Part shown: piece after piece, positions 1,021 to 28,302 of the stretch
Layout of the letters: each line of letters starts with the position of its first letter
Position numbering within the stretch: the first letter of the stretch is position 1
Assembly: GCA_963718585.1 (NCBI GenBank)
Contig: OY970357.1
Coordinates: forward strand, 570,001 to 602,000
Length of the DNA stretch: 32,000 nt
Source of the DNA: Candidatus Saccharimonadota bacterium
GTDB lineage: Bacteria > Patescibacteriota > Patescibacteriia > 2-12-FULL-60-25
Reading direction: 5' to 3'
Program-made: the position numbers and the translations under genes
Notes under the pieces: model-generated
Seen by the model: the letters and a program-made list of their open reading frames with translations, nothing else
Told to the model about the DNA's origin: nothing
The model's database searches: none

Positions 1021-3156
<2,136 letters not shown>

Positions 3157-3250: not shown

Positions 3251-5017
3251 GTGAAACCACTTCGTCTGTTGGCGGCTTTGGCCATTTTGGCCACTGTGGC
3301 ACATTGCGGCTCGGATAACTCGCCGGGCTCGCACCCGAGTAACGGGACTGATGCCGGACCCGACGCCGCCGGAACGGGCGGAGTCAGTGGCAACGGCGGA
3401 TCGTCCGGCAACGGCGGATCGTCCGGAACAGCAGGATCACCCGGCCTCTGGGGCCCAGGCCCCGGCATGCCCGGTTCTGTGACCGAGATCTCCCAACACA
3501 TGGCTCATGTGCAAGGGATCAGCTCACAGCTCATCATCACGACCAAGAGCAGCGGGAGTAAGTGCCCGCCGGTCGAGGGTGGTGCCGGTTCTGCCGGTGC
3601 ATCTGGTGCAGCCGGTTCGGATGGCGGCGTGGGAGCGGAAGCTTCTGCTGGCGCCGCGGGGTCGGCAGGTTCTGCCGGCGCTTCGGGCGCGGGCGGAACG
3701 ACTGGCAGTGATGCCGGTTCGTGCCTCAGTACCTACACGCCCTCGCCGGCTTCGCTGGACCTGTCCGGCATTGCCACGACGAGCGTCAGCCTGGCGCTCC
3801 CGACGATCCCGCTCTTCCAGCCGCTCGATCAGAGCGGTCAGTGCCAGCAAGCAGGGACGCTTCTGCAGAATGCAAAGCTCTTCCTGACGAGCTGTGACCA
3901 GTCGGTGACCGAAGTGCCCGTGTTCACCAACGCGGACATCGACGGTTTCTTCGGCGCTTCATCCGTTCTTGGTCGGAAGGATAACTTCCACATCGACAAC
4001 GGAACCGTGGCGACGATCACCGGTCTGGCCATGAAGAGCGCCGAGTGCGGGAACAGCGTGTTCCTCACATCGAACGCGTCCGGGACCATCATCCAGGTCA
4101 CGCTCGATGCGGACGCGGGCTATCCGCGATCGGATCACGACACCGGCTACGCCGGCCTCTCGGGCATCACCTGCGGTCCCAACGGGACCGTGGTCGTGAG
4201 CACGTCCAGGACCTTTACCCAGGACTCCTGGAACGTAGCTGGCGGGTCGAGCGACCCGTCAAAGCTCGTGGAGGAAGACCCGGTGCGGATCGTCTCGTAC
4301 GATCCAATGGCCGGGACCCAATCGGTCCTGACCGAGATCAACGGTCTGTCGAAGGTCCTGACGCAGAGCTACGCAGCTCTGCCCGGGGTCGACGGCGGGA
4401 CGAAGATCCTGATGCCGGGGACGGCGAACATGCTCACGCATGCCACGGACAGTGACCTTCTCTACGGAGATCACTTGACGGGTTCTGTGTGGAAGATCTC
4501 CCCGGACGGGAGCACGAAGAACAAGCTGTTCGAGACGGACCGACTCTTCACCGGGCTGGTCCAAGCACCGAACGGCGTGATCTTCCTCGCACTCAACGCG
4601 CGCGCGGACATCAACTGCGGCACCATCCTCTCTCCACCGGTCATCGCCGCGTACAACGCGACGACGGGTATGGTGGACGATTGGCTGACCCTGTCGAGTC
4701 CGGACTACGCAACGCTTCTGCCGACGCTCTGCAACACGGGCATCATCGAGCGGAACTATACGACGCAGGAGATCCTGATCGGCGGAGGCAACTTCAACGA
4801 TCTGATCGCCGACCCCATCTATCCGGTCCTGTTCGTCACCGAGTCGCTCCGCAATGTCACGCGGGCGATCGAGGTGACCTATCAGCCACCGGAAGCTGGG
4901 ACCGATGCAGGGTCTGACGCCGACGCGGATAGCGCGACGGATGCAGGCGATGCCTCAGACGCCAGTTCCGATACCGGATCCGACGCGGATAGCGCGACGG
5001 ATGCGGGAACGGACTGA
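3251..5017 (+). CDS. Secreted (possibly lipid-anchored) low-complexity protein, function unknown
   Basis: GTG start with a strong SD. Signal-peptide-like MKPLRLLAALAILATVAHC. Gly/Ser/Ala-rich linkers (GNGGSSGNGGSSG; AGSAGASGAAGS...), a central globular part of roughly 350 aa, and an acidic tail (DAGSDADADSATDAGDASDASSDTGSDADSATDAGTD). A strong terminator follows. Confidence 0.75.
   Translation: MKPLRLLAALAILATVAHCGSDNSPGSHPSNGTDAGPDAAGTGGVSGNGGSSGNGGSSGTAGSPGLWGPGPGMPGSVTEISQHMAHVQGISSQLIITTKSSGSKCPPVEGGAGSAGASGAAGSDGGVGAEASAGAAGSAGSAGASGAGGTTGSDAGSCLSTYTPSPASLDLSGIATTSVSLALPTIPLFQPLDQSGQCQQAGTLLQNAKLFLTSCDQSVTEVPVFTNADIDGFFGASSVLGRKDNFHIDNGTVATITGLAMKSAECGNSVFLTSNASGTIIQVTLDADAGYPRSDHDTGYAGLSGITCGPNGTVVVSTSRTFTQDSWNVAGGSSDPSKLVEEDPVRIVSYDPMAGTQSVLTEINGLSKVLTQSYAALPGVDGGTKILMPGTANMLTHATDSDLLYGDHLTGSVWKISPDGSTKNKLFETDRLFTGLVQAPNGVIFLALNARADINCGTILSPPVIAAYNATTGMVDDWLTLSSPDYATLLPTLCNTGIIERNYTTQEILIGGGNFNDLIADPIYPVLFVTESLRNVTRAIEVTYQPPEAGTDAGSDADADSATDAGDASDASSDTGSDADSATDAGTD
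3389..3424 (+). repeat. Perfect tandem duplication of an 18-nt unit (ggcaacggcggatcgtcc x2) inside the CDS
   Basis: 3389-3406 equals 3407-3424, encoding GNGGSS GNGGSS. Confidence 0.9.
4920..5004 (+). repeat. Two 25-nt identical copies 60 nt apart in the acidic C-terminal tail
   Basis: ccgacgcggatagcgcgacggatgc occurs at 4920-4944 and 4980-5004, encoding DADSATDAG twice. Confidence 0.9.
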
Positions 5018-5898: not shown

Positions 5899-6513
5899 TC
5901 AACGTTGATAGATCCGTGAGGACACCGTCGTTTGTGCCTGAAGCGTCACATTCTCCTTCGGCTGATCCGAGATGTACTTCAATCCGAGGCTGACCGTCAC
6001 ATATGGCTGGATGTTGTTGGGATACGATCCGCCGACCTTGATAAATGGGTCCTGCGTGGGCTCGAGATACACGTCAAAATTGGTCACATCAACCCGATTC
6101 GCCGTCACCTGCGTCCACGTCGCGCCATCATCGATCGATAGCATGAGACAATGACTGACGATCGTATCCTGGCACTTTGGACTTCCAGTGCTGCTTTCGC
6201 GTGCGATCCAAATATGGATCCCGTTCGATTTGAAGAGTTTGAGGATCGCATCCTTTTCAGCGGGACCTGCAGAATAATCGATGGTGTCGTTCCGCGCTTC
6301 ACGCACGATCGCTTCCATCGCATAGCGCATATCCTGTCCAAGGACCGCCTTGTCCGCGACCCTCCGATGTAATTGATTGAACGAGATGAATATCTGCGAG
6401 AGTGCGACCGCCATCAACATGAAAATGAATGTCACGATCAACATCTCGACCAGGGTGTAGCCCGGCGCGAGAGATGGTTTCCGCGTTGATGTATTGACTC
6501 GGGAACGAGTCAA
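5899..6513 (-). CDS. GspJ/PilW-like minor pseudopilin (start uncertain: TTG 6513, or in-frame ATGs up to 6753)
   Basis: Class III signal ...KPSLAPG|YTLVEMLIVTFIFMLMAVAL with Glu at +5. TTG 6513 gives a 17-aa leader, MTRSRVNTSTRKPSLAPG. The track ORF stays open in frame up to ATG 6753, overlapping the upstream gene by 14 nt. Confidence 0.7.
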   Translation of the reverse strand: MTRSRVNTSTRKPSLAPGYTLVEMLIVTFIFMLMAVALSQIFISFNQLHRRVADKAVLGQDMRYAMEAIVREARNDTIDYSAGPAEKDAILKLFKSNGIHIWIARESSTGSPKCQDTIVSHCLMLSIDDGATWTQVTANRVDVTNFDVYLEPTQDPFIKVGGSYPNNIQPYVTVSLGLKYISDQPKENVTLQAQTTVSSRIYQR

Positions 6514-6648
6514 TGACGGATCGGACGTTTTTTGCGTGATGAGATGCGATGGTTTAGACCAGATGGACTTCGAAAATGGAATGAAACGCGACGAGCTGGA
6601 ACGAGTCGACAAAGGATCGGACGTTTTATGCGTGATGAGATACGAAGG
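6503..6648. repeat. Two 50-nt direct repeats with a 96-nt period upstream of or within the pseudopilin 5' region
   Basis: 6503-6552 versus 6599-6648 match at 43 of 50 positions (gaacgagtc...ggatcggacgtttt.tgcgtgatgagat.cga.gg). A perfect 9-bp hairpin at 6493-6501/6506-6514 contains the TTG candidate start. Confidence 0.85.
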
Positions 6649-6739
6649 CCTGGACGGCGAGACCGCCGGAGACGTATTGAACATACGACGAGGACGGGCT
6701 CGACGGAAGGCCGAGCGAATCGCGCGCATAAAACGTTCG

Positions 6740-7321
6740 TTATCGCCAGTCATACAGATCGTCGTAGACAGTTACACTCTTCGCTATCCCCTTTCGCGTC
6801 CATTGGACTTTTGATTCGACACGTACCCCTTTTTTGGTACCTGCCGCACACGTATTAGGCGGATCTAGGACGGTGATCGCGCCGGAATCGCAGATCGGAT
6901 GGAAAGTGATCAAGCGAGCGTACGGCGTTGAAGTTCCGCTCGTACCCTGTCCATAGAACGTTCCCCCATTGATCAAGAACACCCTCGCTCCCGCGTCTGT
7001 GATCGCGTTCGCTGTAAAATCGAAGGATGGGACCGTACCCGCCTGACCGATCCATGCGGAGGTTCCTGTGTAGTTCGTCGAGTCTCCGACCGCATACAGA
7101 CCTGTATCAAAATCCGCTCCTGCAAGCCAGTTCGAATCCCGGACCTCCTTGGCAAGCTCCACTCCTTCACGCGCCATATTCACTGCGACCACCTCATCCG
7201 TATCCCGATCCACAAGCGCCAAATTGGAATAGACGATCGCCATCGCGGACATCAACCCGACACTGATCACCATCAGGGCGATAAGCATCTCGATCATGGT
7301 CTGTCCGTGTCGCAATCGCAT
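6740..7321 (-). CDS. GspI/PilV-like minor pseudopilin
   Basis: MRLRHG|QTMIEMLIALMVISVGLMSAMAIV: prepilin cleavage/methylation motif with Glu at +5. It sits in the pseudopilin row. Confidence 0.75.
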   Translation of the reverse strand: MRLRHGQTMIEMLIALMVISVGLMSAMAIVYSNLALVDRDTDEVVAVNMAREGVELAKEVRDSNWLAGADFDTGLYAVGDSTNYTGTSAWIGQAGTVPSFDFTANAITDAGARVFLINGGTFYGQGTSGTSTPYARLITFHPICDSGAITVLDPPNTCAAGTKKGVRVESKVQWTRKGIAKSVTVYDDLYDWR

Positions 7322-7931: not shown

Positions 7932-8721
7932 AGAGGCGCGTCACCCAGGTGATGATCTGTCCGCCGAACCACAAGGCGAGCACCGATCCAGCGGCGAGCG
8001 CCGGCCCGAACGGGATCCGATCACCGCGATGCAGGGTCTTTGAAGCTAATCCGACGATCGCAACGATCCCGCCGGCGAGATATCCGAGATACAGAGCCAC
8101 AAGGACACCCGGCCAGCCGAAGATGCCGGCCATGGCCAAACCGAACCACAGATCACCCATCCCAAGCCAGCGCTCCTTCGACAGGATGATCTGGAGCCCG
8201 AAGAACAAGAGGACGAACACGGCGGCGATGATGACGCTCGAAACGGTCTGCCAAGGATCCCCGCTCAAGAACAGCAGTTTATATGCCAGTGCCGTGATCC
8301 CGATCCCGGCCAAGAACTCGACGGGAAGCTCCTTCCAACGCAGATCCATCACCACCGGAACGAGCAATGCGATCGTGAGGAGGAACTCGAACCAGAACAG
8401 ATACGCGGACGCACCGACGAGCGGATCCCATCGGATCGCGGCGATCACCCCCAGGATCATTGCTGCGCCTTCCACGAGCGGATATTGAATATGGATCTTC
8501 CGATCGCAGGACGGACACCGGCCGCCCAGCATCAAATATGAAAAGACGGGCACGAGGTGCTTCGCGCGGATGGTCTGCTTGCAATGCGGACAGGCAGAAC
8601 GACCCATCAACGATGCACCTTCATGCCACCGATAGGCTAAGACGTTCGCAAACGAACCCAGCGCTCCGCCGAGAAGCGCGACATAGATGATACCGATGAC
8701 CCGTTCAAGCATGAACATCAC
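7924..8721 (-). CDS. pilD: Prepilin peptidase / N-methyltransferase (A24 family)
   Basis: Polytopic membrane protein with CPHC...CPSC Zn-binding pairs in the first cytoplasmic loop, and Asp motifs VVMDLRWKELP and GMGDLWFG. Confidence 0.9.
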   Translation of the reverse strand: MMFMLERVIGIIYVALLGGALGSFANVLAYRWHEGASLMGRSACPHCKQTIRAKHLVPVFSYLMLGGRCPSCDRKIHIQYPLVEGAAMILGVIAAIRWDPLVGASAYLFWFEFLLTIALLVPVVMDLRWKELPVEFLAGIGITALAYKLLFLSGDPWQTVSSVIIAAVFVLLFFGLQIILSKERWLGMGDLWFGLAMAGIFGWPGVLVALYLGYLAGGIVAIVGLASKTLHRGDRIPFGPALAAGSVLALWFGGQIITWVTRLYA

Positions 8722-9182
8722 TCCTCGTCATCCGTCTGATTGATGCCGTCTGCATGCGCATAGTACGTCCCTGCTGTCCCGTATGCGGTCTGCCGCTCTG
8801 TCGCGAACCGGATGGAATATCCCTGTGCAGATCCATGATATCGATAGTATTCTCCACCCTTCGGGCCCACCGGAACCTGGGAAAGGTACACGGGAGAAGA
8901 TGCACTGTTCGCCGGGACAAACCCATCAACGGTCAGACGATCCACACCCGCTCCGGGAGCACCAAGATCCACGGGATCGCTTTGCGGATACCCAGCCTTT
9001 TGCAGCCAGTACTGCGTCAGACCGGCACGAAGGACCGCGACATCTGATACGCGCTTGTTATCGCGATTCATGGATCGCGTGATGTTCAGCATGTAGATCC
9101 CGACGGCAGCCAGGATGCCGACTGCGACCACGACGACGAGGATCTCCAAAAGGGTGAAACCTGGCAGGTTGCGGCGTTTCAT
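8718..9182 (-). CDS. Type IV pilin-like protein (second pilin)
   Basis: MKRRNLPG|FTLLEILVVVVAVGILAAVGIY: prepilin motif. ATGA overlap with the pilD start. Confidence 0.8.
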   Translation of the reverse strand: MKRRNLPGFTLLEILVVVVAVGILAAVGIYMLNITRSMNRDNKRVSDVAVLRAGLTQYWLQKAGYPQSDPVDLGAPGAGVDRLTVDGFVPANSASSPVYLSQVPVGPKGGEYYRYHGSAQGYSIRFATERQTAYGTAGTYYAHADGINQTDDEE

Positions 9183-9860: not shown

Positions 9861-11081
9861 TTATCCGATCCCAGCCCCGCTCGAAAGCTGGTAGAGCGGC
9901 AACATGATGGCGGAGACAAGGACACCAACGCCTAAGCCAAGGATCACGATCACGATCGGCTCAATGAGCTTGGTCAGAGTTGCGACCACATTGTCGATCT
10001 CCCGGGAGTAAAATTCGCTCAATCGCCCAAGGATGTTCTCGGTCTTCCCTGTTCCCTCACCGACCTCAAGCATCTGCAGCATCATAGTGGGGATGAATTT
10101 ATGCCGCTTGAAAGCCGTCACAATGGAATTCCCATCGTTCACCTCTTGGATCGTTTCAAGGACCGCCCGCTTCCAGACCGCGTTCCCGACCACGCCAGAA
10201 ACGATCTCCAAGGCGGAAACGAGGTCCATACCCCCATGCACGAGCGTTTCAAGCGAACGTGAAAATCGAACAACGTACATCTCCCGGAATAACAGACCAA
10301 AGATCGGGATCTTCATCTTGATACTGTCCCACGTATACCGTCCGGGCGGCGTCCCGATCCAGGCACGGAAACCGACACCCAATCCGACCATGGCGATCAG
10401 GATGAGCCACCACCAAGTTGCCATGAATCCGGAGGTCGCGATGAGGATCCTGGTGGAAAGCGGCAATTCGACATTTGCCTGCGACAGGATGGACGTCAGC
10501 TTCGGCACCACGAATGTCATCATGACGAATCCGACGACGAACATGACGGAGATGATGAAGGCTGGATAGATCAGTGCCCCCTTGATCTTGGCCGACAGAT
10601 CAAAATCCTTTTCCTGCTGATCCGCCAGATATTCGAGCACTTCGGAAAGCTGCCCCGTCGTTTCCCCAGAACGAACCATGTTGATGAAAAACCCGCTAAA
10701 GACCTTGGGGTAGCGCTCAAGCGCGTCTGAAAAACGGGCACCGTTCTCCACCTCACCCCCTACATCGGAAAGGATGGATCTGAGCCGCGGATTTTCCGTC
10801 TGATGCGCGATGTTCCGCACCGCATCAGCCACGGGCACGGACGCACTGATCATCACGGACAATGTCCGCGTCGCGATGACAAGGTCCTTCGGCTTGACGC
10901 GATTCAAAAGGAGCGTCAGGCGCTGTTCCGCGACTTCGACGCCTTCATATGGCTCCAAGAGCAAAACATCCAAACTCCGCTCAACAAGTGCCTCCTGAGC
11001 TGTATTGATGTCCTCCGATTCGATGGTTCCGGCTTGCATCCGGCCATCGGACATCCGCGCACGATACTTGAATGTTGGCAT
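9861..11081 (-). CDS. pilC: Type IV pilus platform protein (GspF/PilC family)
   Basis: 406-aa polytopic protein with duplicated GspF-type cytoplasmic domains (MPTFKYRARMSDGRMQAGTIE...; ...GETTGQLSEVLEYLA...; ...VGEGTGKTENILGRLSEFY). Confidence 0.92.
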   Translation of the reverse strand: MPTFKYRARMSDGRMQAGTIESEDINTAQEALVERSLDVLLLEPYEGVEVAEQRLTLLLNRVKPKDLVIATRTLSVMISASVPVADAVRNIAHQTENPRLRSILSDVGGEVENGARFSDALERYPKVFSGFFINMVRSGETTGQLSEVLEYLADQQEKDFDLSAKIKGALIYPAFIISVMFVVGFVMMTFVVPKLTSILSQANVELPLSTRILIATSGFMATWWWLILIAMVGLGVGFRAWIGTPPGRYTWDSIKMKIPIFGLLFREMYVVRFSRSLETLVHGGMDLVSALEIVSGVVGNAVWKRAVLETIQEVNDGNSIVTAFKRHKFIPTMMLQMLEVGEGTGKTENILGRLSEFYSREIDNVVATLTKLIEPIVIVILGLGVGVLVSAIMLPLYQLSSGAGIG

Positions 11082-11739: not shown

Positions 11740-13479
11740 CTAGATATCTTCTTGGGTCGCCTGAGACAGGCGAAGCACCTCTTCTACTGTCGTGATCCCC
11801 GCAAGCGCCTTGAGGATCGAGTCCTGCCGGAGTGTGATCGCACCCTGTTTCGTGAAATACGCTCGCGCTTCTTCCTGGGGATACCCCTTTTCGACCAAAC
11901 GCTTGACCGGTTCAGTGAACTGGATCATCTCCGCCACCACGGCCCGCCCCTGATACCCGGAATCACCGCATCGGGAGCACCCTTTGCCGTGATAGAACAC
12001 AAGATCCCCGTCTGGATTGAAATCCTTGGGATAATATTGCGGCGGAATGGCTTTGATCTCTCTCCGGAGTGAATCCAACGTCGCTTTCTCAAGCTCAAGC
12101 GGTTCTTTGCAGTGGGTGCAGATCTTGCGCGCAAGCCGTTGGGCGATGCCAAGATTGATCGTAGCGGCTAGCAGATAGGGCTCCAGACCCATGTCCAAAA
12201 GACGCGGAATGATGCCGAACGCATCGTTCGTATGCAGGGTCGAGAACACGAGATGACCGGTCAGCGAGGCGTGGATCGCCAATTCCGCCGTTTCTTTATC
12301 TCGGATCTCACCGACCATGATCACGTTCGGATCCTGACGGAGAAGGGCGCGGAGCCCGGTCGCGAACGTATACCCGATCTCCGGACGGACCTGCGATTGG
12401 TTCACCCCTTCGATGTAATACTCGACCGGATCTTCCAGCGTCGAGATGTTCACCCCTTCGCTGTTGAGTTGATTCAACACCGCGAACAGGGTCGTCGATT
12501 TTCCGGAACCGGTCGGCCCGGTGACCAGGAACATCCCATTCGGTCGCGTCATCTCCTCTTCCATGATCTTGACGTGCTCTGTACGGAATCCGAGCTGGGA
12601 CGGCGTCGGCGCGGTCGCAGACGTGTCGAGGATACGCATCACGACCTTCTCGTTATCAACGACCGGCAGGGTCGAGATACGGAAATCGATCTTCCGTCCA
12701 CCTATCTCCTGCGTGATGCGACCGTCCTGCGGGACGCGCGTCTCATCGATCTTGAGATTCGCCAACACTTTGATGCGTGAGATGATCGCTGGATGCACAT
12801 AGATCGGCAGGATGAGCGACGTCCGAAGGACGCCGTCGATGCGATACCGGACGCGGGATTCGTCGCCGATCGGCTCGATATGGATATCCGACGCCCCACC
12901 CTCTACCGCGTGTCGCATGATGACGGACACCATCCGCGAGACCGGCGCGCCCTTGATGATCTCCTCAAGCTTCCCGACATCTTCGGTCTTGATCTCTTTC
13001 CGCTCGAACTTGCCCTTCGCCTGCGCCAAGGCCGTCGCGACCTCGGCACCGAGTCCACGGACCTTCTTCAGCAGGCTCTGGATCTGACTGGACGGGGCGA
13101 CGACATACCGGATCGACCATCCCTTGTCCGCCGCCATGAACTCCAACGCCTCCGTCGCGTGATAGTCACGCGGATCCAACATGGCGACCTCCAGCACTTT
13201 TCCATCAAACGCCGTGGGAACCACGTTGTACGTGTCCATCGTCGCTTGCGGAATGATCTCCAATGTCTCCTTCGGGATCACGCGCTCTGTCAGATCCACA
13301 TACGGGAGACCAAGGACCTGTGCACGCGCTTTCGCGAAATCATGATCACTGACATATTTGCCGCCGACCAGGGCCTGCTCGATGGTCTTCCCCCGTTTCA
13401 CCAATTCCCGGACGCTTTTCGCGGCCTTCTCGTCGATCTTCTTGCTATTGAGCAAGGATGTCAAAAGTTCTTCATCCAT
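11740..13479 (-). CDS. pilB: Type IV pilus assembly ATPase (GspE/PilB family)
   Basis: N-terminal T2SSE_N-like region, Walker A GPTGSGKST, Walker B/Asp box VIMVGEIRD, His box, and tetracysteine CTHC...CSRC. Confidence 0.95.
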   Translation of the reverse strand: MDEELLTSLLNSKKIDEKAAKSVRELVKRGKTIEQALVGGKYVSDHDFAKARAQVLGLPYVDLTERVIPKETLEIIPQATMDTYNVVPTAFDGKVLEVAMLDPRDYHATEALEFMAADKGWSIRYVVAPSSQIQSLLKKVRGLGAEVATALAQAKGKFERKEIKTEDVGKLEEIIKGAPVSRMVSVIMRHAVEGGASDIHIEPIGDESRVRYRIDGVLRTSLILPIYVHPAIISRIKVLANLKIDETRVPQDGRITQEIGGRKIDFRISTLPVVDNEKVVMRILDTSATAPTPSQLGFRTEHVKIMEEEMTRPNGMFLVTGPTGSGKSTTLFAVLNQLNSEGVNISTLEDPVEYYIEGVNQSQVRPEIGYTFATGLRALLRQDPNVIMVGEIRDKETAELAIHASLTGHLVFSTLHTNDAFGIIPRLLDMGLEPYLLAATINLGIAQRLARKICTHCKEPLELEKATLDSLRREIKAIPPQYYPKDFNPDGDLVFYHGKGCSRCGDSGYQGRAVVAEMIQFTEPVKRLVEKGYPQEEARAYFTKQGAITLRQDSILKALAGITTVEEVLRLSQATQEDI

Positions 13480-16910: not shown

Positions 16911-18908
16911 TTAGAAGGCGTCTTGAGTAGCGGGGAGAGACTTGGAGACGTCGGCCATGCCTGGCGGCGGATTAGCGACCGCGCGGCCGTCAAAGATCAC
17001 ATTCTCCGCCGGGGTGCTCGGATCACGGACCACGCGCTGAAGATCGATCTGATGGGCGGCCATGAGGCCGTACACGGTCAGCGGCTGCTCGCTCGGACAG
17101 GTCGTCGCGCCGCCGCACGCCGTCCCGGTCTTGATCGATTCTTCCGCGAACATCGCGGCAGAGACGATCGTGACACCCGGATCAATGACGATGTTCCCAC
17201 CAAATCCATTCTTCTTCGTCACAATGATACCAAGTGAGGCGAGATTGCGCAGATATTGGATGCTGGCGGACGGTGCATACGTGATATTCCCCGTGATATG
17301 GAGATCCGCGCCCTCGATGATGAGGAGGCCATTCCCCCGATCTGTCTGCGCGGAACCGTTCCCAAGCGCGGCCGCGTTGAGCGTGATCGTCCCTGGACCG
17401 ACCGCATGATAGACCTTGCCGCCAAGGAGCGTCGGCAGACTGCCGGTGAAATTCACGACAGCCCCGTAATGTCCGGCAAGGATGCCATAGATATCGAGAC
17501 TCCCGAGCGTGCCCTGATATTGCTGTGCCCCGGATGGGAGCTGGATCTTCTGCGCTCCGGTCTCGGAGCATCCTTTTGCACTCGTGAAACCGGTGATCGA
17601 CCCTTCGGTCGTCAGACAGTACGTGGCATTATTCGTGGTCAAAAGCGGCGAGGAAGAAGCGACCAGTCCCTGCTGGGCGTAGATGCTGCCATATTGGGTC
17701 TGCAGCCAGGGCGGCGCACAGGTGGGATCCACGGCCTGACAGCTCGCATCATTGCAATCCACTGTCCCATTGCCGTCATCGTCGATGCTGTTCGAGCAAC
17801 ACGCGTGCACCCCGAGCGGCGCGAATGGCGGATTCGGATCCGTGCACGATGGTTCGCTCCCTGCCGGCGGAGGCGGCGGCGAACACGAGGCCCCCGGAGG
17901 TCCGACATATCCGGCGCACCCTGGATCCGCGCAGTCGATCAACCCGTTGCCGTTATCATCCTTCCCATTGCCGCACAAAGGAGTCCCGCCCGCGTCCGTG
18001 ACTCCCGGCACTTCATTGCAGTACGAGCTCGGCTGACACGCGGCGGCCGCACAATCGATCAGTCCGTCGCCATTATCATCCACGCCGTTGTGACACATGT
18101 TATTTCCCCCAGAATCAGTATTCGTCGGGATCTCCTGACACGCTGCGGTCGATTGGCACGCACTATCTTGACAATCGATCTTCCCGTTCAGATCGTTGTC
18201 CTTCCCGTCTGTACACGCGGATTCGCCCGGGGTGTTGAGATAGACGCTTGAAAAATCGATGTACCCGAACCCTGTACCATCCGAATTCCCGTTCCAGGCG
18301 AATGACGTATACGGCGGCGGCGTGTTCGCCGTGAACTTCTTGGTCGTAGGATCGTATTGGACCTTATATGCATAAATGCCGCACGCGGACGGATCAGTAC
18401 AATTGAGTGAGACATACCCGGCATCGCCCTCGTTGCAGACCTTGGCCCATCCATGGACGTCCGTGACTCCGCTGACCGGATTGAGATACGCCGATGCGGA
18501 CCCGGGGGAACTGAATCCACCACATGCAGAACACGAATCTCCGAAGCAGATCCACCCTGCTCCATCATTCCACGCGAACCCATTCATGTTGCGTGTGTTT
18601 GGATCGACGTTCACACCGTAACTCCCACAGGGTCCGGGCGAACATGCTCCCGCGTTCGTGTCATTCATCGATGACCAGCCGATCGGATCCGCCCAGATCC
18701 ATCCCATGACATTGTCCGAGACCGTTGCCTGTGCAGGATGCTGGACCGCTCCGTATTGGAATGACGCGACCATCATGCCGACGCCGACGAACATGATGAA
18801 TCCGGATAGAAGATGATGCCATCGCCATAACCAATTCGGCCGCTTCAAGCGGCGCCGCGATCGTCTCGCGGTACGTCGAGTCCTGGTCTGACGCTTGGTC
18901 GTTACCAT
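16911..18908 (-). CDS. Large N-terminally anchored Cys/Asp-rich surface protein leading the pilus operon (candidate adhesin or Ca-binding pilus factor)
   Basis: Very basic N-terminus plus one TM. Four Trp/Gly-rich motif repeats (GWIWADPIGWSSMN, FAWNDGAGWICF, HGWAKV..AGYVSLN, FAWNGNSDGTGFGYIDF). Four Cys-bracketed repeats of the form C.[DN]G.D[DN][DN].[DN]G.[IV]DC....C (aa 232-397). The C-terminal third is predicted beta-rich. Confidence 0.8.
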   Translation of the reverse strand: MVTTKRQTRTRRTARRSRRRLKRPNWLWRWHHLLSGFIMFVGVGMMVASFQYGAVQHPAQATVSDNVMGWIWADPIGWSSMNDTNAGACSPGPCGSYGVNVDPNTRNMNGFAWNDGAGWICFGDSCSACGGFSSPGSASAYLNPVSGVTDVHGWAKVCNEGDAGYVSLNCTDPSACGIYAYKVQYDPTTKKFTANTPPPYTSFAWNGNSDGTGFGYIDFSSVYLNTPGESACTDGKDNDLNGKIDCQDSACQSTAACQEIPTNTDSGGNNMCHNGVDDNGDGLIDCAAAACQPSSYCNEVPGVTDAGGTPLCGNGKDDNGNGLIDCADPGCAGYVGPPGASCSPPPPPAGSEPSCTDPNPPFAPLGVHACCSNSIDDDGNGTVDCNDASCQAVDPTCAPPWLQTQYGSIYAQQGLVASSSPLLTTNNATYCLTTEGSITGFTSAKGCSETGAQKIQLPSGAQQYQGTLGSLDIYGILAGHYGAVVNFTGSLPTLLGGKVYHAVGPGTITLNAAALGNGSAQTDRGNGLLIIEGADLHITGNITYAPSASIQYLRNLASLGIIVTKKNGFGGNIVIDPGVTIVSAAMFAEESIKTGTACGGATTCPSEQPLTVYGLMAAHQIDLQRVVRDPSTPAENVIFDGRAVANPPPGMADVSKSLPATQDAF

Positions 18909-23165: not shown

Positions 23166-24395
23166 TCAGGAAGCGAGTGGCGTGCGATAGATATCCTCGC
23201 GCGTCAACGGTGCGATATTTTTCCCATTTGGCGCATTCTTCGCGGAAAGGGTCTGATGCACCTCGATCGAACCTTCCTCAAAGGCAAGCGCGCAGCCCGG
23301 CAAGTAGAGATCCCACACACGCAGAACCTTCTCCGGGACCATGCCGGCCATCGTCGCCTTGTTCGACCGATACCGCTCATTCCACGCGCGGAGAGTCAAT
23401 GCGTAGTGGAGCCGGAGCTCTTCAACGTCCAAGATCTCGAATCCCGCTTTTTGATTATGGACAAGCATATCCGAGATCGTATCGAGCTCTGCGCCCGGAA
23501 AGACGTGGCGGAAGATGAATTCGCCGCCGATGAAATCCAATTCCTTCTGCTTGATGGTGATCCCGTGGTTGAGTAACAATCCACCGCTCCGTAACGCACG
23601 ATGCAGAGCGTTGAAGTATTCGGGATACTTTGCGATCCCAACATGCTCGACCATGCCCACAGATGCGATCTTGTCGAACGCATCGGACGGCAGATCGAGA
23701 TAATGCTTGAGTTCGATGGTGATCTTTCCCTCCAACCCGGCGTCGCGAACGCGCTGGGTCGCCAGATCATACTGATTCTGTGAAAGGGTGATCCCATGCG
23801 CCTCGACGCCGTAATGCTGAGCGGCCCAGATCACGAGCGCGCCCCATCCACAACCGACGTCAAGGAATCGTTCGCCTGGTTTCAAGCGCAGTTTCCGGCA
23901 CACGAGATCCAGCTTTCGTTCCTGCGCCTTTTCCAGCGCGGTGTCCGGCGTCTCGAAGTACGCACAGGAATAGATCATCTTCGGATCCAGGAACAACTGA
24001 TAAAACTCGTTCGACAGATCATAATGCGCCTGCACGTCTCGCATGTCATCTTCTTTCGTATGTCGCGTTTGCGGGACACCGAGTTTTGCCGCCGCCTTCA
24101 ATTTCTCCATCGTGCTCAACTGGACAGAGGATAGATAGTCCTTCAACCCAAGCGCGCCGTAGATATCACCCTCGATGTCGAAATGCCCGTTGACATACGC
24201 CTCTGCAAAGCGTGATGGATCGCCGGACCGCATGCAATCCGCGAACGTCTCCGCGTCGGAAAAGATGAGTGTATAGGCTGCGGGGTTCCCCCACGCTACG
24301 GTCGTGCCGTCCCAAAGCCGGACGGCGAAATCTTTGGTCGGGTGATCGCGGAAGATCCGCTCCACGAGCTCTTTGGCATCTGCTGTGCTGATCAT
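23166..24395 (-). CDS. cfa: Cyclopropane-fatty-acyl-phospholipid synthase family SAM-dependent methyltransferase
   Basis: SAM motif FLDVGCGWGAL plus family-typical HYDLSNEFYQLFLDPKMIYSCAYF and SVGMVEHVG. Start placed at ATG 24395 (MISTADAK...), 10 nt after the lepA stop. Confidence 0.9.
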   Translation of the reverse strand: MISTADAKELVERIFRDHPTKDFAVRLWDGTTVAWGNPAAYTLIFSDAETFADCMRSGDPSRFAEAYVNGHFDIEGDIYGALGLKDYLSSVQLSTMEKLKAAAKLGVPQTRHTKEDDMRDVQAHYDLSNEFYQLFLDPKMIYSCAYFETPDTALEKAQERKLDLVCRKLRLKPGERFLDVGCGWGALVIWAAQHYGVEAHGITLSQNQYDLATQRVRDAGLEGKITIELKHYLDLPSDAFDKIASVGMVEHVGIAKYPEYFNALHRALRSGGLLLNHGITIKQKELDFIGGEFIFRHVFPGAELDTISDMLVHNQKAGFEILDVEELRLHYALTLRAWNERYRSNKATMAGMVPEKVLRVWDLYLPGCALAFEEGSIEVHQTLSAKNAPNGKNIAPLTREDIYRTPLAS

Positions 24396-24405
24396 AAAAA
24401 ATGAC

Positions 24406-26220
24406 TTAACGTGAATCTCCACGGCGAAGGACCTTGATGAAGGCGTCGGAGGGGATCTCCACACTCCCCTTCCCCATGCTCATCATCTTGGACTTCCCCT
24501 TTTTCTGTTTTTGAAGCAGCTTCATTTTGCGCGTTACGTCGCCTCCGTACAAGTACCCGGTCACGTCCTTGCGATATGCAGACAATCGCTCAGACGCGAT
24601 GACCTTGGCTCCGATGGCCGCCTGGATCTTGATGACGAATTGCCGTCGCTCAAGCGTCTCCTTGAGCGTTTCGACGATATGCCGCCCGCGGAATTCGGCC
24701 TCCGATCGATGAACGAGTGACGACAGCGCCGGGACCGGTTCCTCCGCGACCAGGATATCAAGGCGCACGATATCCGCCAGCCGATATCCGATGAAGTCAT
24801 AATTCAGCGACGCATACCCCTGCGTCACGCTTTTCAGCCGGTCGTAAAAATCGACGATCACGCTGGCAAGCGGCATCTCAAAGTGCATGACCGCGCGTTC
24901 GGCATCAAGCCATTCCGTGGTCTGGAACGTCCCACGCCGCTCGGTCACGATCGTCATGATCGCGCCGAAGTAGGATGATGGCGTGACGATGTCCACCTTG
25001 ACCCACGGTTCGCGCGTCTCCTGTAGAAATGACGGGTCCGGGTAATCAAGCGGCGACGTGACGACCACCTGGGTCCCATCTGTCTTCACGACCTCGTAGG
25101 CCACGGACGGCGTGGTCACGATCACTTCGAGGCCGCCTTCGCGCCGCAACCGTTCCTGCACGATCTCGAGATGCAACATCCCAAGGAGTCCGCACCGGAA
25201 GCCGAATCCGAGCGCGGTGCTCTGTTCCGGTTCATAGGTCAGCGCGGCGTCATTCAACCGTAAGCGTTCCATCGCGTCGCGCAGACGGTTGTAGGCATCG
25301 CCCTCTTTGGGAAAGATCCCGGCATAGACCATGGGACGGACGACCTTGTATCCCGGGAGCGCCTGCGTATCCGCGACGCGCGAACGGACCGCGACCGTGT
25401 CCCCCACGCGAACCTCCGTGATCTCTTTCAATCCCGTGACGATATACCCGATCTCCCCGGTCGCAAGGGCGGAGGAAGCTATCAGTGCGGGTTTCAGATA
25501 CCCGACTTCGAGTGCATCACCGTCTGCCTTCGTCGCCATGAACCGCAATTTGTCGTTCTTTGTGATCGTCCCATCCACCAAACGCACGTACGCGACCACG
25601 CCGCGATAATCGTCGTATTTGGAATCAAAGATGAGCGCCCGCGGTGGCTTTGATGGATCGCCAGATGGGGATGGCACGCGCTGGACGATCGCCTCCAGGA
25701 TCGCGGGCACGCCCTCTCCGGTCTTTCCCGATGCGGTCAGGATCTCCTCGCGCTTACAGCCGATGAGCTTGATGATCTCCTCGGCACGACGCTCTACGTC
25801 CGCATTGGGCAGATCGATCTTGTTGAGCACGGGAATGATCTCCAGATTCTGCTCGATCGCGAAATAGAGGTTCGCGATGGTCTGTGCCTGCACACCTTGC
25901 GTCGCGTCGACGAGGAGCAAGGCGCCCTCGACCGCTGCAAGGGAACGGTTCACTTCGTAATGAAAGTCGACATGACCGGGCGTGTCGATGAGATTCAATT
26001 GATATTCCGATGTATCTTCACCGATATATTTCATCCGTGCGGGCTGAAGTTTGATCGTGATCCCCCGCTCCCGCTCAATATCCATGGTATCGAGCATCTG
26101 TGCCTGAAGCTTCCGTTTTTCAACGGTTCCCGTGACCTCAAGCAACCGATCGGCAAGCGTACTCTTGCCGTGGTCGATATGCGCGATGATGCAGAAATTT
26201 CGGATGTGGGATTGGTCCAT
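24406..26220 (-). CDS. lepA: Elongation factor 4 (translational GTPase LepA)
   Basis: IRNFCIIAHIDHGKSTLADRLL (G1), DTPGHVDF (G3), NKID (G4), full EF4 length (604 aa) and a LepA-specific C-terminal region. Confidence 0.95.
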   Translation of the reverse strand: MDQSHIRNFCIIAHIDHGKSTLADRLLEVTGTVEKRKLQAQMLDTMDIERERGITIKLQPARMKYIGEDTSEYQLNLIDTPGHVDFHYEVNRSLAAVEGALLLVDATQGVQAQTIANLYFAIEQNLEIIPVLNKIDLPNADVERRAEEIIKLIGCKREEILTASGKTGEGVPAILEAIVQRVPSPSGDPSKPPRALIFDSKYDDYRGVVAYVRLVDGTITKNDKLRFMATKADGDALEVGYLKPALIASSALATGEIGYIVTGLKEITEVRVGDTVAVRSRVADTQALPGYKVVRPMVYAGIFPKEGDAYNRLRDAMERLRLNDAALTYEPEQSTALGFGFRCGLLGMLHLEIVQERLRREGGLEVIVTTPSVAYEVVKTDGTQVVVTSPLDYPDPSFLQETREPWVKVDIVTPSSYFGAIMTIVTERRGTFQTTEWLDAERAVMHFEMPLASVIVDFYDRLKSVTQGYASLNYDFIGYRLADIVRLDILVAEEPVPALSSLVHRSEAEFRGRHIVETLKETLERRQFVIKIQAAIGAKVIASERLSAYRKDVTGYLYGGDVTRKMKLLQKQKKGKSKMMSMGKGSVEIPSDAFIKVLRRGDSR

Positions 26221-26232
26221 AGGCGGTCTGCG

Positions 26233-26382
26233 TCATCGCGCAAAGGGAAGGGTCGGAAACCGTGAGGTTTCCGTGGCGGAGGGAGGATGCAAAGCATCCT
26301 GGGAACCGATGGCTTCCCAGGAGTCCGCCTCGTGCGGACGACGGACGATGATGCAGAAATTTCGGATGTGGGATCGGTCCAT
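26233..26382 (-). CDS. 49-codon upstream ORF starting with the duplicated lepA N-terminus (hypothetical leader ORF)
   Basis: MDRSHIRNFCIIVRRPHEADSWEAIGSQDALHPPSATETSRFPTLPFAR. It is in the same frame as lepA, and its TGA lies 12 nt before lepA ATG 26220. The promoter -10 sits 11 nt upstream of its ATG. Confidence 0.25.
   Translation of the reverse strand: MDRSHIRNFCIIVRRPHEADSWEAIGSQDALHPPSATETSRFPTLPFAR
26254..26339 (-). other. Four consecutive hairpins between the two lepA 5' copies
   Basis: 26254-26261/26266-26273 (8 bp), 26285-26290/26294-26299 (6 bp), 26297-26305/26314-26322 (9 bp, sharing 3 nt with the previous hairpin) and 26323-26328/26334-26339 (6 bp). Confidence 0.6.
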
Positions 26383-26393
26383 GGATGAGGCGC

Positions 26394-26422
26394 ATTCTGC
26401 CTGAAATCAGGGCGTTTGGCAA
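26394..26422 (-). promoter_or_regulatory. Putative sigma70-type promoter of the lepA-cfa transcript
   Basis: Minus strand reads TTGCCA (26417-26422), a 17-nt spacer, CAGAAT (26394-26399), then 11 nt to ATG 26382. Confidence 0.45.
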
Positions 26423-26453
26423 TCCAGCCACGCCCATATGAGATTTGTCATTC

Positions 26454-27434
26454 CTATTGCCCCAACAGCTGTGATCCAGCCGCCGGGCCGCTGATCGTCG
26501 GTGTCGATGTCGGCGGAGTCAATTCCGTATCAAGCGGCACGCGCAAAGGCGCCGTGAACTGCGGGAAGATCTTCTCCAACATCGCACGGCTCTCGAGGAT
26601 CCGGACGCGCTGGATGAACCGATCCGGGATCTTTGCCGCGACCGGCAGTTTGATGAACCTCGCCGGACGCTTGAGCCGTTCCGGCAGGATCTTTTGTTTG
26701 GCAAAGAGGAAACCCGCCTTGGTCTGATCTGTCGCGGTCAATCGATGGACAAGCGCCTTCAACTGATCCGGATCGGATCGCGTAAATGTCTGCGCGGTCG
26801 CGCGCAAGCCTTGTCCGGCAGCAAGCGCGATCACGGGCAGGGCTGGCGGCGTCTGATCCTGCCCGGGTTCGACATTATTCTCCGCCATCACCTGGACCTC
26901 ATGGTCCGCGACCTGGATATCCGCTGCATCCCCGTCGATGGAAACGCCGAACGCCGTACCCCGGACCGTTGCCACCACGCCGTTCGCCACGACATTGAAA
27001 TGGTCATCTTTCCCAAAGAGCTTCTCGAATCGCGTCCAGACACTTCCCGCGGTGAGCTGGATCTCCGCGGCGATGGAGGAACCATCCGCCCCGTCATTCG
27101 GCAGCAAGACGATCTGCGTTCCTGTCTCTAGACGTGAGATCCCCGTTTCCGGATAGACCAACTCGACCGGCCCCTGTGTGACGGTCACGGCATCGCCGCC
27201 GTTCAATTCCATGTCATCCTTCGCTTGATACACCTGATCCGCCCGATCCACATTGGCAGAACCACCATCCAGCCTGAGATAGGCGATGGCGGCTGGAGTG
27301 GAACTCGTCTCCGTCGTTTGCGCGACCTCGGTCCCTGACGGCGCCTGTGCGACACGCGGATGGACCTGAAAGCACCCCGCACCGACGAGCGGCAACGTAA
27401 GCGCCAAAGAGAGAACGGCAAAGGGAGATCGCAT
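26454..27434 (-). CDS. FecR-domain protein with signal peptide (possible lipoprotein)
   Basis: MRSPFAVLSLALTLPLVGAGC... followed by a FecR-like beta-rich pattern (GGDAVTVTQGPVELVYPETGISRLETGTQIVL; LTAGSVWTRF...VATVRGTAFGV). Start at ATG 27434; GTG 27440 is an alternative. Confidence 0.78.
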   Translation of the reverse strand: MRSPFAVLSLALTLPLVGAGCFQVHPRVAQAPSGTEVAQTTETSSTPAAIAYLRLDGGSANVDRADQVYQAKDDMELNGGDAVTVTQGPVELVYPETGISRLETGTQIVLLPNDGADGSSIAAEIQLTAGSVWTRFEKLFGKDDHFNVVANGVVATVRGTAFGVSIDGDAADIQVADHEVQVMAENNVEPGQDQTPPALPVIALAAGQGLRATAQTFTRSDPDQLKALVHRLTATDQTKAGFLFAKQKILPERLKRPARFIKLPVAAKIPDRFIQRVRILESRAMLEKIFPQFTAPLRVPLDTELTPPTSTPTISGPAAGSQLLGQ

Positions 27435-27447
27435 ATGCACCGATGAT

Positions 27448-28302
27448 TCAGGATGATGACGTCGATGTCGATGTCTGGATGTCAAGCGTCGGATCCGATG
27501 TCAGGTCAAGCGCGGGCGCCGTGATCTCGGCGTTACCCGCCTGGACGAACGCATCGGAACGATCAGATACGCCAAATGCTTCCGTGGTAAGTGCCGCATC
27601 TCCCGACGGGACGGAGACACGCTCCCCCTTATTCACCGTGATCGCACTTCCGACCGGATCGTAGATGACCGCATCATCGATGCCATTGGCTCGGTCTTGA
27701 TAGGTCGGCGTGCGCGCCGCAACGCGCGACACGGCGATCTGTCCATTGGACACCTCATATCGCACATCCGCACCATTGACAGAGGCTCCGAAAGACGCGA
27801 ACAACGTCAACGCATCCGCACCGTCCGCTTGAACGCTGAAGACCGAGTCGGGTCCGATGGGTTTGACCAGTCGCGTCCAGACCTGCCCGTTTTCTACGGA
27901 CAATCGGATGCGAAGTCGCTCGCGGTTGGTGCTCTCGAACGCCTCGATGAACGTGACAGTGGTCCGTGCATCCAAAAGGATCCGGCCGTAATGCGGTACG
28001 ATCACGGAAAGCTCCGCGCCTCCTGCGGTCAGGACATCGCCGGTCTGGACTTTCATCCGCGCCTGAGCCGGAACGGTCGTCGGCCCACGGGTAAGGGTCG
28101 CGGATCCATCCGTGTGCTCGATCACGACGCCATCTTGAGGCGTCAATCCCGGATTGATGGGCAGCTGATCCGCAGTGGACGTCGCATCCGAAGTGATGAT
28201 CGGACCAGGCGACGTGATCGGAAGCAGACGGAATCCAAGTGCGAGGACGAAAAAAAGCACGATCGCCCCAAGGATCCACGTCCCGTATCGGACTCGTTTC
28301 AT
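27448..28302 (-). CDS. FecR-domain protein, N-terminal TM anchor (paralogue of the downstream gene)
   Basis: TM GTWILGAIVLFFVLALGF, then VQTGDVLTAGGAELSVIVPHYGRILLDARTTVTF and ENGQVWTRL, giving the same domain pattern as 26454-27434. Confidence 0.78.
   Translation of the reverse strand: MKRVRYGTWILGAIVLFFVLALGFRLLPITSPGPIITSDATSTADQLPINPGLTPQDGVVIEHTDGSATLTRGPTTVPAQARMKVQTGDVLTAGGAELSVIVPHYGRILLDARTTVTFIEAFESTNRERLRIRLSVENGQVWTRLVKPIGPDSVFSVQADGADALTLFASFGASVNGADVRYEVSNGQIAVSRVAARTPTYQDRANGIDDAVIYDPVGSAITVNKGERVSVPSGDAALTTEAFGVSDRSDAFVQAGNAEITAPALDLTSDPTLDIQTSTSTSSS

Follow-up and report, generated by a model that had tools for sequence, protein, structure and literature searches.

How can a gene stay expressible after an insertion has parted its start codon from its promoter and left a duplicate of that start in the old position? 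The question is raised by lepA, the gene for the translation factor EF4, in a stretch of 32,000 nucleotides that was analysed as a whole (the window, positions 570,001 to 602,000 of contig OY970357.1). All features of the lepA region lie on the minus strand, and coordinates are positions in the window. Our answer, to which we give a probability of about 0.55, is that a recent and lineage-specific insertion with duplication has left the promoter facing a decoy start, and that translation of LepA is now coupled to a short chimeric upstream open reading frame (uORF) through a stem that sequesters the lepA start codon.

The first 37 nt of lepA are present twice, as a direct repeat with 36 of its 37 positions identical, the two copies being spaced by 162 nt, or 54 codons, and lying in the same frame (Table 1). 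The chance probability of such a match, for a 37-mer with at most one mismatch, is about 1e-20 per pair, and lepA is the sole gene start within the window to be duplicated in this manner. The mismatch falls in the third codon, which is CAA in the downstream copy (Gln3, as in relatives) and CGA in the upstream copy (Arg3). The −10 box of the promoter-like site ends 11 nt before the upstream ATG, and this was the single sigma-70-like site found between 25800 and 26900, an interval in which no terminator-like site was found. Both a Shine-Dalgarno (SD) motif and a promoter were sought ahead of the downstream ATG, which opens the true lepA reading frame, and neither was found. The absence of an SD sequence carries little weight here, because most open reading frames (ORFs) in the window lack one. 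Much of this anatomy had been described in an earlier note on the same DNA, which reported the in-frame duplication 162 nt upstream with one mismatch, a single good promoter 11 nt ahead of the upstream copy, a lepA ATG with neither SD sequence nor promoter, a 49-codon uORF sharing its first 12 residues with LepA apart from the Arg/Gln difference and stopping at a TGA 12 nt before the ATG, and four hairpins between the copies, two of them overlapping and competing. The duplication was recovered at the same coordinates on the minus strand, and the remaining elements were confirmed with it, each of the four hairpins refolding with a z-score between −3.5 and −4.3.

Table 1. Features of the lepA 5′ region, in window coordinates.
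Feature	Position	Strand	Description
lepA (EF4)	24406..26220	-	604 aa; GTP_EFTU, D2, EFG_III, EFG_C and LepA_C domains all intact
Downstream repeat copy	26184..26220	-	True 5′ end of the lepA ORF; ATG 26220-26218
Upstream repeat copy	26346..26382	-	Copy of lepA nt 1-37, forming uORF codons 1-12; carries the single mismatch
Insert, 125 nt	26221..26345	-	64% GC, C-rich on the sense strand, highly structured
Promoter-like site	26394..26422	-	TTGCCA-17-CAGAAT; -35 box 26422-26417, -10 box 26399-26394
uORF, 49 codons	26233..26382	-	MDRSHIRNFCII, then 37 insert-encoded residues
Hairpin H1	26323..26339	-	GUCCGC-ACGAG-GCGGAC; 6 bp, -10.8 kcal/mol, z -4.1
Hairpin H2	26298..26321	-	CCUGGGAA-GCCAUCGG-UUCCCAGG; 8 bp, -15.4 kcal/mol, z -3.5
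Hairpin H3	26284..26300	-	AGGAUGC-UUU-GCAUCCU; 6-7 bp, -8.5 kcal/mol, z -4.3
Hairpin H4	26254..26273	-	CGGAAACC-UCAC-GGUUUCCG; 8 bp, -12.3 kcal/mol, z -4.3
Gate stem, 5′ arm	26227..26242	-	UGCGCGAUGACGCAGA; 3′ end of the insert, includes the uORF UGA
Gate stem, 3′ arm	26180..26195	-	UCUGCAUCAUCGCGCA; lepA nt 26-41, codons 9-14

Comparison with relatives indicates which of the two starts is the older. The closest LepA proteins, 76–83% identical, come from metagenome-assembled genomes of Candidatus Uhrbacteria and other Patescibacteria, and the host genome is that of a Ca. Uhrbacteria-like bacterium of the Candidate Phyla Radiation (CPR). The lepA 5′ flank was read in about 15 relatives with LepA proteins 61–83% identical, and the insert, the duplication and the hairpin block were absent in all of them, each having a single lepA start. 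In four that are among the closest (L161, L162, L001 and L002) a promoter motif, ATTGCCAAA...TTTTC..GCATGMT, ends 8–11 nt ahead of this single ATG. When the window is aligned with these relatives the same motif stands 11 nt ahead of the upstream copy, and the sequence preceding the downstream copy is unrelated to it. Since the relatives have one start right behind the same promoter, the alignment identifies the upstream copy as the ancestral, near-leaderless position of the lepA start, and the extra 162 nt as an insertion. The copies differ by one position in 37, in a gene whose product is at most 83% identical to its nearest relative, which points to a recent event; the base that departs from the conserved Gln3 is found in the upstream copy only. 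Pseudogenisation of lepA was considered and rejected, as all of its domains are present and its rate shows no acceleration, chi-square staying at 2.0 or below in every Tajima relative-rate test, for which five relatives and three outgroups were used. All relatives in this clade of reduced genomes have kept lepA.

The position of the promoter bears on how the ancestral gene was read. A Pribnow box lying about 10 nt from the start codon is a signature of leaderless transcription (PMC6028130). CAGAAT lies 11 nt before the ATG at 26382, with no SD sequence, and the corresponding distance in the relatives is 8–11 nt; judged by this spacing, the ancestral lepA mRNA probably had no leader or next to none. 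The same −10 spacing and lack of an SD sequence characterize the leaderless mRNAs of lambda cI, of mycobacteria and Deinococcus, and of the “group C” genomes of GeneMarkS-2 (PMC6028130), with the difference that here the putative leaderless start no longer opens the gene that it formerly served. Other first genes of the window are laid out in the same way: those at 8718-9182, 9861-11081, 16911-18908 and 27448-28302 have the −10-like boxes TATACT, TAATAT, TACAAT and TAGGAT, 6–11 nt before their minus-strand ATGs at 9182, 11081, 18908 and 28302, a pattern which suggests that leaderless transcription is widespread in this genome. A separate observation concerns GATC, often in the form TGATC[CT], which lies within 10 nt upstream of the start in 8 of 26 window ORFs against a background of 10.6% of 10-nt windows (binomial P = 0.004); examples are the starts at 13479, 14575, 15670, 29947, 31501 and 6753 on the minus strand and 3251 on the plus strand. 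This motif is complementary to GGAUCA, which is located just 5′ of the anti-SD sequence in the 16S rRNA tail, and it may serve this lineage as a ribosome-binding signal that is non-canonical and displaced in position. A near-match, TCATCC, is present at the uORF start, and there is none at the lepA start.

The reading frame opened by the upstream copy is in the frame of lepA and terminates at a TGA (26235-26233) 12 nt ahead of the lepA ATG. TGA is an ordinary stop in the window, ending 12 of its 27 ORFs, and an alternative genetic code with UGA as a sense codon was ruled out on that ground. The uORF is not of exceptional length for its composition, 49% of composition-matched shuffles giving a frame with no stop or with only a late one. 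Its product has proline-rich stretches (RRP, HPPS and PTLPF).

The insert is strongly structured as a whole, folding at −53.5 kcal/mol with a z-score of −5.2 relative to shuffled sequences. Of its four hairpins, H3 and the 3′ arm of H2 have 2–3 nt in common and so compete with each other, while H4 is followed by ACCCUUCCCUUUG and has no U-tract. The element of most consequence for lepA was absent from the earlier note. It is a 16-nt inverted repeat, matched at 15 of 16 positions (26242-26227 with 26195-26180), which encloses the lepA ATG, so that on folding the AUG sits in a 31-nt loop closed by what we call the gate stem. This stem has a predicted stability of −26.1 kcal/mol (z −5.8) and appears in both the minimum free energy and the centroid structures of the whole leader, its 15 paired positions having pair probabilities of 0.86–1.0 and the sixteenth being a C-A mismatch. 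When the insert was compared with the first 121 nt of lepA, a 16-mer inverted match as good as this one arose in none of 3000 shuffles. The 3′ arm reaches 4 nt past the end of the direct repeat, and the complement therefore matches the intact lepA context rather than the upstream copy. In folds of the insert alone the 5′ arm can find other partners, either in the upstream copy or at the 5′ end of the insert itself.

The calculated energetics of this stem set the two start codons apart. In free mRNA the cost of opening the lepA initiation region (−15 to +15) is 18.5 kcal/mol, which on this model is prohibitive for de novo binding of the 30S subunit at the lepA AUG. When a ribosome is placed on the uORF stop, covering 26250-26221, the residual cost is 3.1 kcal/mol; that of the region around the 5′-terminal, upstream AUG is 4.3 kcal/mol.

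These features can be combined into a route by which LepA would still be made. A hairpin-rich segment of 125 nt follows nt 37 of lepA and is accompanied by a repeat of nt 1–37, and the ancestral promoter and its near-leaderless AUG have stayed with the upstream copy, which now opens a decoy uORF. Transcription from the conserved promoter would place the upstream AUG at or near the 5′ end of the mRNA. In free mRNA the lepA AUG would be locked in the loop of the gate stem, formed between the end of the uORF, including its UGA, and codons 9–14 of lepA. A ribosome starting at the 5′-proximal AUG would translate the uORF, melting H1 to H4 and then the gate stem, and would terminate at the UGA inside the 5′ arm, from where the same ribosome or its 30S subunit could reinitiate at the lepA AUG 12 nt downstream.

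Such an arrangement has close counterparts among translationally coupled gene pairs, in which a start-sequestering hairpin lies partly in the upstream ORF and the distance from stop to start is short, and for which RNA-unfolding and ribosome-scanning models have been put forward (PMC12548453). The coat and lysis genes of phages MS2 and fr, genes VII and IX of f1, and rpmI-rplT of E. coli (PMC12548453) share with the present locus two co-oriented ORFs on one transcript, a downstream start silenced by a stem whose 5′ arm is in the upstream ORF, and a short intervening distance, here +12 nt. The uORF and lepA are co-oriented and separated by this 12-nt gap, there is no promoter or terminator between them, and the lepA start is sequestered by a stem with one arm in the upstream ORF. 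The ribosome-scanning model requires no SD sequence, which fits the SD-less lepA. The locus differs from these pairs in that the upstream ORF is not a gene but a chimera of the first 12 codons of lepA and the insert, and in that the arrangement arose by recent insertion in a single lineage and its coupling is a prediction. Coupling efficiency falls as the distance between stop and start grows (PMC12548453), and for this reason LepA output, if maintained, is probably lowered.

A number of points count against coupled translation. Both the transcription start and the reinitiation are steps that we infer. The 12-nt gap without an SD sequence is expected to weaken coupling, and LepA may be poorly expressed or effectively silenced. 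That the ORF is intact and evolves at a normal rate may mean no more than that the event is recent, and the stem could be a by-product of mutation, for example of a template switch that copied the opposite strand, rather than a selected gate. No source for the 125 nt was found, and copies were searched for in 32 kb of a genome of about 1.08 Mb. An assembly artefact is a further source from which the whole arrangement might stem, although an unlikely one.

Several of these points converge on a different view of a real insertion, namely that it is a mere lesion which has cut LepA to little or nothing and is tolerated because EF4 is often dispensable, the stem being a by-product. Knock-outs of lepA show little phenotype in standard conditions. 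Strong sequestration of the AUG (18.5 kcal/mol), the 12-nt gap with no SD sequence and the weakening of coupling with distance (PMC12548453) are all what a lesion would present, the arrangement is conserved in no relative, and with an event as recent as one difference in 37 nt implies the intact ORF proves little. The position of the uORF stop speaks for a different outcome, as it lies within the 5′ arm of the stem and 12 nt from the AUG, so that a terminating ribosome could free the start. LepA also shows no excess of unique substitutions, and lepA is retained across the relatives of this reduced-genome clade. We hold the lesion to be unlikely, if still an explanation to be reckoned with.

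LepA might also escape the gate altogether if it had its own transcript. An unrecognised promoter or RNA-processing site that set the mRNA start near 26230-26221 would make the uORF irrelevant, and a transcription start just upstream of 26220 would both recreate a leaderless lepA and drop the stem's 5′ arm. Little is known of CPR promoters, most window ORFs are SD-less and several first genes look leaderless, all of which would accommodate such an entry. The insert, however, is a poor place for it, being GC- and C-rich and having no sigma-70-like site; the sole credible −10 box, TATGGA, overlaps the lepA ATG, and the conserved lepA promoter motif of the clade is absent from the insert. A separate lepA transcript is on balance very doubtful.

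The structure of the leader, its strength and its alternative pairings invite comparison with dedicated regulators, and the earlier note had raised the possibility of a leader peptide and RNA structure devoted to EF4. In such a system uORF translation and alternative RNA structures would tune EF4 to the state of translation, through ribosome availability or stalling. EF4 is linked to translation stress. The very strong structure (z about −5), the alternative partners of the gate-stem 5′ arm (the upstream copy and the 5′ end of the insert) and the proline-rich stretches of the uORF would suit that role, and translation attenuation at ermC/ermCL and transcription attenuation at trpL likewise involve a short upstream ORF and hairpins that hide the start of a gene. 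Those leaders differ from this one in what they possess, since here there is no U-tract terminator, no regulatory run of codons, no known arrest motif, no conservation and no Rfam match. The element is absent from every relative examined, leaving no support from conservation or covariation; there is neither terminator nor antiterminator, H4 having no U-run; no Rfam family matches even at E <= 10; and no precedent for a uORF or leader at lepA came up in a literature search. The uORF opens with 12 codons copied from lepA, not with a sensor that evolved as such, and its length is unremarkable for its composition. The proposal of a dedicated EF4 regulator thus finds little to sustain it, and we consider it quite improbable.

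A more exotic use of the duplicated codons would be programmed bypassing, in which ribosomes, having begun at the upstream AUG, would leave the message inside the first repeat (e.g., at AUC AUC), pass over the compactly folded 125 nt and resume on the identical codons of the second repeat, giving full-length LepA with no need of reinitiation. Twelve matched take-off and landing codons, an in-frame distance of 162 nt and a compactly folded gap (z −5.2) are in keeping with this. The locus also resembles gene 60 of phage T4 and the “byp” elements of Magnusiomyces mitochondria, where GC-rich hairpin inserts within a coding sequence are flanked by identical in-frame codons. The gap is, however, 162 nt here and 27–55 nt there, which to our knowledge makes the hop about three times as long as any known bypass; the repeat here takes in the start codon, and no stop codon follows take-off. 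What comes after the take-off region is GUC CGU CGU, with neither a stop nor an obvious hungry codon, the first stop being reached 37 codons on. The duplicated AUG makes ordinary reinitiation sufficient, and the upstream copy has drifted from the conserved Gln3. If true, bypassing would make this a bacterial chromosomal “byp”-like element, with a programmed bypass much longer than any other known and without precedent in a gene of a cellular bacterium, but we regard it as extremely improbable.

Whichever way the start is used, the insert itself has to have come from somewhere. Searching with blastn-short against the window and 160 loci, about 1 Mb in total, returned nothing but the insert itself and its 16-nt lepA complement; loci fetched later (L161–L166) were compared around their lepA upstream regions only. 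A pattern scan of metagenome contigs gave 0 matches to the insert, as did three patterns run against viral contigs, and there was no match among plasmids and phages. Rfam found nothing at gathering score over the whole window, and in 25800-26700 only chance matches of snoRNA type with E >= 4; no tRNA or tmRNA was found. An origin from coding sequence was rejected, the six concatenated frames of the insert giving nothing at E <= 1 against 5.8 billion proteins. The idea that the insert is a tandem copy of the upstream region or a second promoter in decay was likewise dismissed, because a comparison with the 125 nt ahead of the lepA ATG in the window and in seven relatives (16 tests) showed no significant similarity. 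The best result in that comparison was from L002, whose score was reached by 10 of 300 shuffles before correction for the 16 tests and which is a weak lead. A palindrome in this relative shares with the insert an H1-like GTCYGCA..GGCGGACT (GTCTGCAGCAGGCGGACT) and the 9-mer GCAGACCGC; the similarity is not significant after multiple testing and is the sole lead on the origin of the insert.

Structured non-coding DNA between direct repeats of its target is also what miniature inverted-repeat transposable elements (MITEs) with target site duplications and att duplications produce. The present case departs from these in having no second copy in the collections searched and in a flanking repeat of 37 bp, far longer than the 2–14 bp target site duplications of MITEs; this is too long for a target duplication made by a transposase. 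The ends of the insert are only partly complementary, CGUCGUCCGC pairing with GCGCGAUGACG with a bulge, and clear terminal inverted repeats are lacking. An integrative element landing in the end of a gene brings a replacement copy of that end, and 37 bp is a typical length for an att repeat. Here there is no integrase or element body nearby, and 125 nt is far too small unless it is the remnant of a deletion; an integrated element was rejected, with no integrase or transposase among neighbours that comprise SpoU, GT2, MurJ, two FecR-like proteins, CMAS and RecJ. A very high-copy repeat is unlikely, because there is no second copy in 32 kb, and a low-copy element may have other members in the remaining 97% of the genome. 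Candidate routes are recombination anchored in lepA with DNA of foreign or ectopic origin, whether illegitimate or facilitated by homology; template switching in several steps, which would account for the short stretch of lepA present in inverted form; and the remnant of an att duplication. Of the three readings in the earlier note, the one that fares best pictured an element inserted with a long target duplication and rescued by reinitiation. The insertion is upheld by the single start of the relatives, and coupling fits the stop-to-start geometry and the stem, while a target duplication by a mobile element was not borne out, no other copy having been found.

The orphan status of the insert has a bearing on whether the locus is real. 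A badly closed gap or a chimeric read could have duplicated the edges of a gap around foreign filler, and local misassembly is known to leave duplicated edges on either side of a unique filler. There is, in addition, no independent assembly of this species in the collections, the nearest LepA being 83% identical. Against an error of assembly or curation, the exact LepA lies on one contig of 1,084,458 bp, which suggests a finished genome or one of long-read quality, and a repeat of 37 nt is far shorter than the k-mers that modern assemblers use. One base separates the copies, and neither a 16-nt complement of lepA placed exactly around the start codon nor an in-frame distance of 162 nt is to be expected of a random misjoin. 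We consequently think an artefact very unlikely indeed.

The lepA loci of other genomes offer observations of their own. In L003 (positions 2990-3000, the same sequence as L081) the lepA start and the stop of the gene upstream overlap as ATGA, and L002 has its own lepA promoter, though its LepA is 92.5% identical to that of L003. In L164 (2440-2530) about 47 nt separate the conserved TTGCCA promoter from an MDQSR start downstream of it; the public gene call begins at a GTG 27 nt upstream, giving 610 aa, and this start is probably mis-called. L001 has a perfect inverted repeat of 55 nt (2808-2961, 100% complementary, 44 nt between the arms) that ends 2 nt ahead of the conserved lepA −35 box and could be MITE-like, a terminator of the upstream gene or a fold-back assembly artefact. 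The palindrome in L002 (1211-1286) has 38-nt arms and lies directly upstream of the lepA promoter. Among more distant metagenomic homologues of LepA, five (L090, L103, L109, L110 and L111) have 17–55 extra codons in the N-terminal G-domain region, their matches spanning 783–894 nt for 244 query residues.

Elsewhere in the window, the plus-strand ORF at 3251-5017 encodes a repetitive Gly/Ala/Ser-rich protein of 588 aa and contains, at 3389-3706 and 4920-5007, tandem repeats with periods of 18, 27 and 60 nt, such as GCCGGTTCTGCCGGTGCATCTGGTGCA.... A direct repeat of 58 nt, 83% identical and spaced by 96 nt, is found at 6502-6655 within the minus-strand ORF at 5899-6753, where it probably reflects an internal protein repeat of 32 residues. 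Downstream of lepA, the longest ORF of a gene resembling cyclopropane-fatty-acid synthase (23166-24464, opening with GTG) shares 59 nt (24406-24464) with the 3′ end of lepA, and the true start of that gene is probably further downstream.

The lepA locus adds a new case to principles already known, those of leaderless initiation and of translational coupling, and constitutes neither a new class of system nor a conserved regulator. Its interest is as a natural example of a conserved translation-factor gene that has been severed from its near-leaderless start by a small insertion and yet could stay expressible, through the joint effect of a leaderless chimeric uORF, a stop inside the sequestering stem and a reinitiation gap of 12 nt. 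It would provide a compact construct with which to study reinitiation by 70S ribosomes or 30S subunits after leaderless initiation, and it is a warning to annotators that a duplicated pseudo-start can part a promoter from the true start codon. On the sequences compared, the lepA 5′ flank is evolutionarily labile, with very fast turnover in this clade of CPR bacteria: among close relatives the start of lepA is putatively leaderless, overlaps the stop of an upstream gene (ATGA), stands behind a leader or, as here, follows a uORF.

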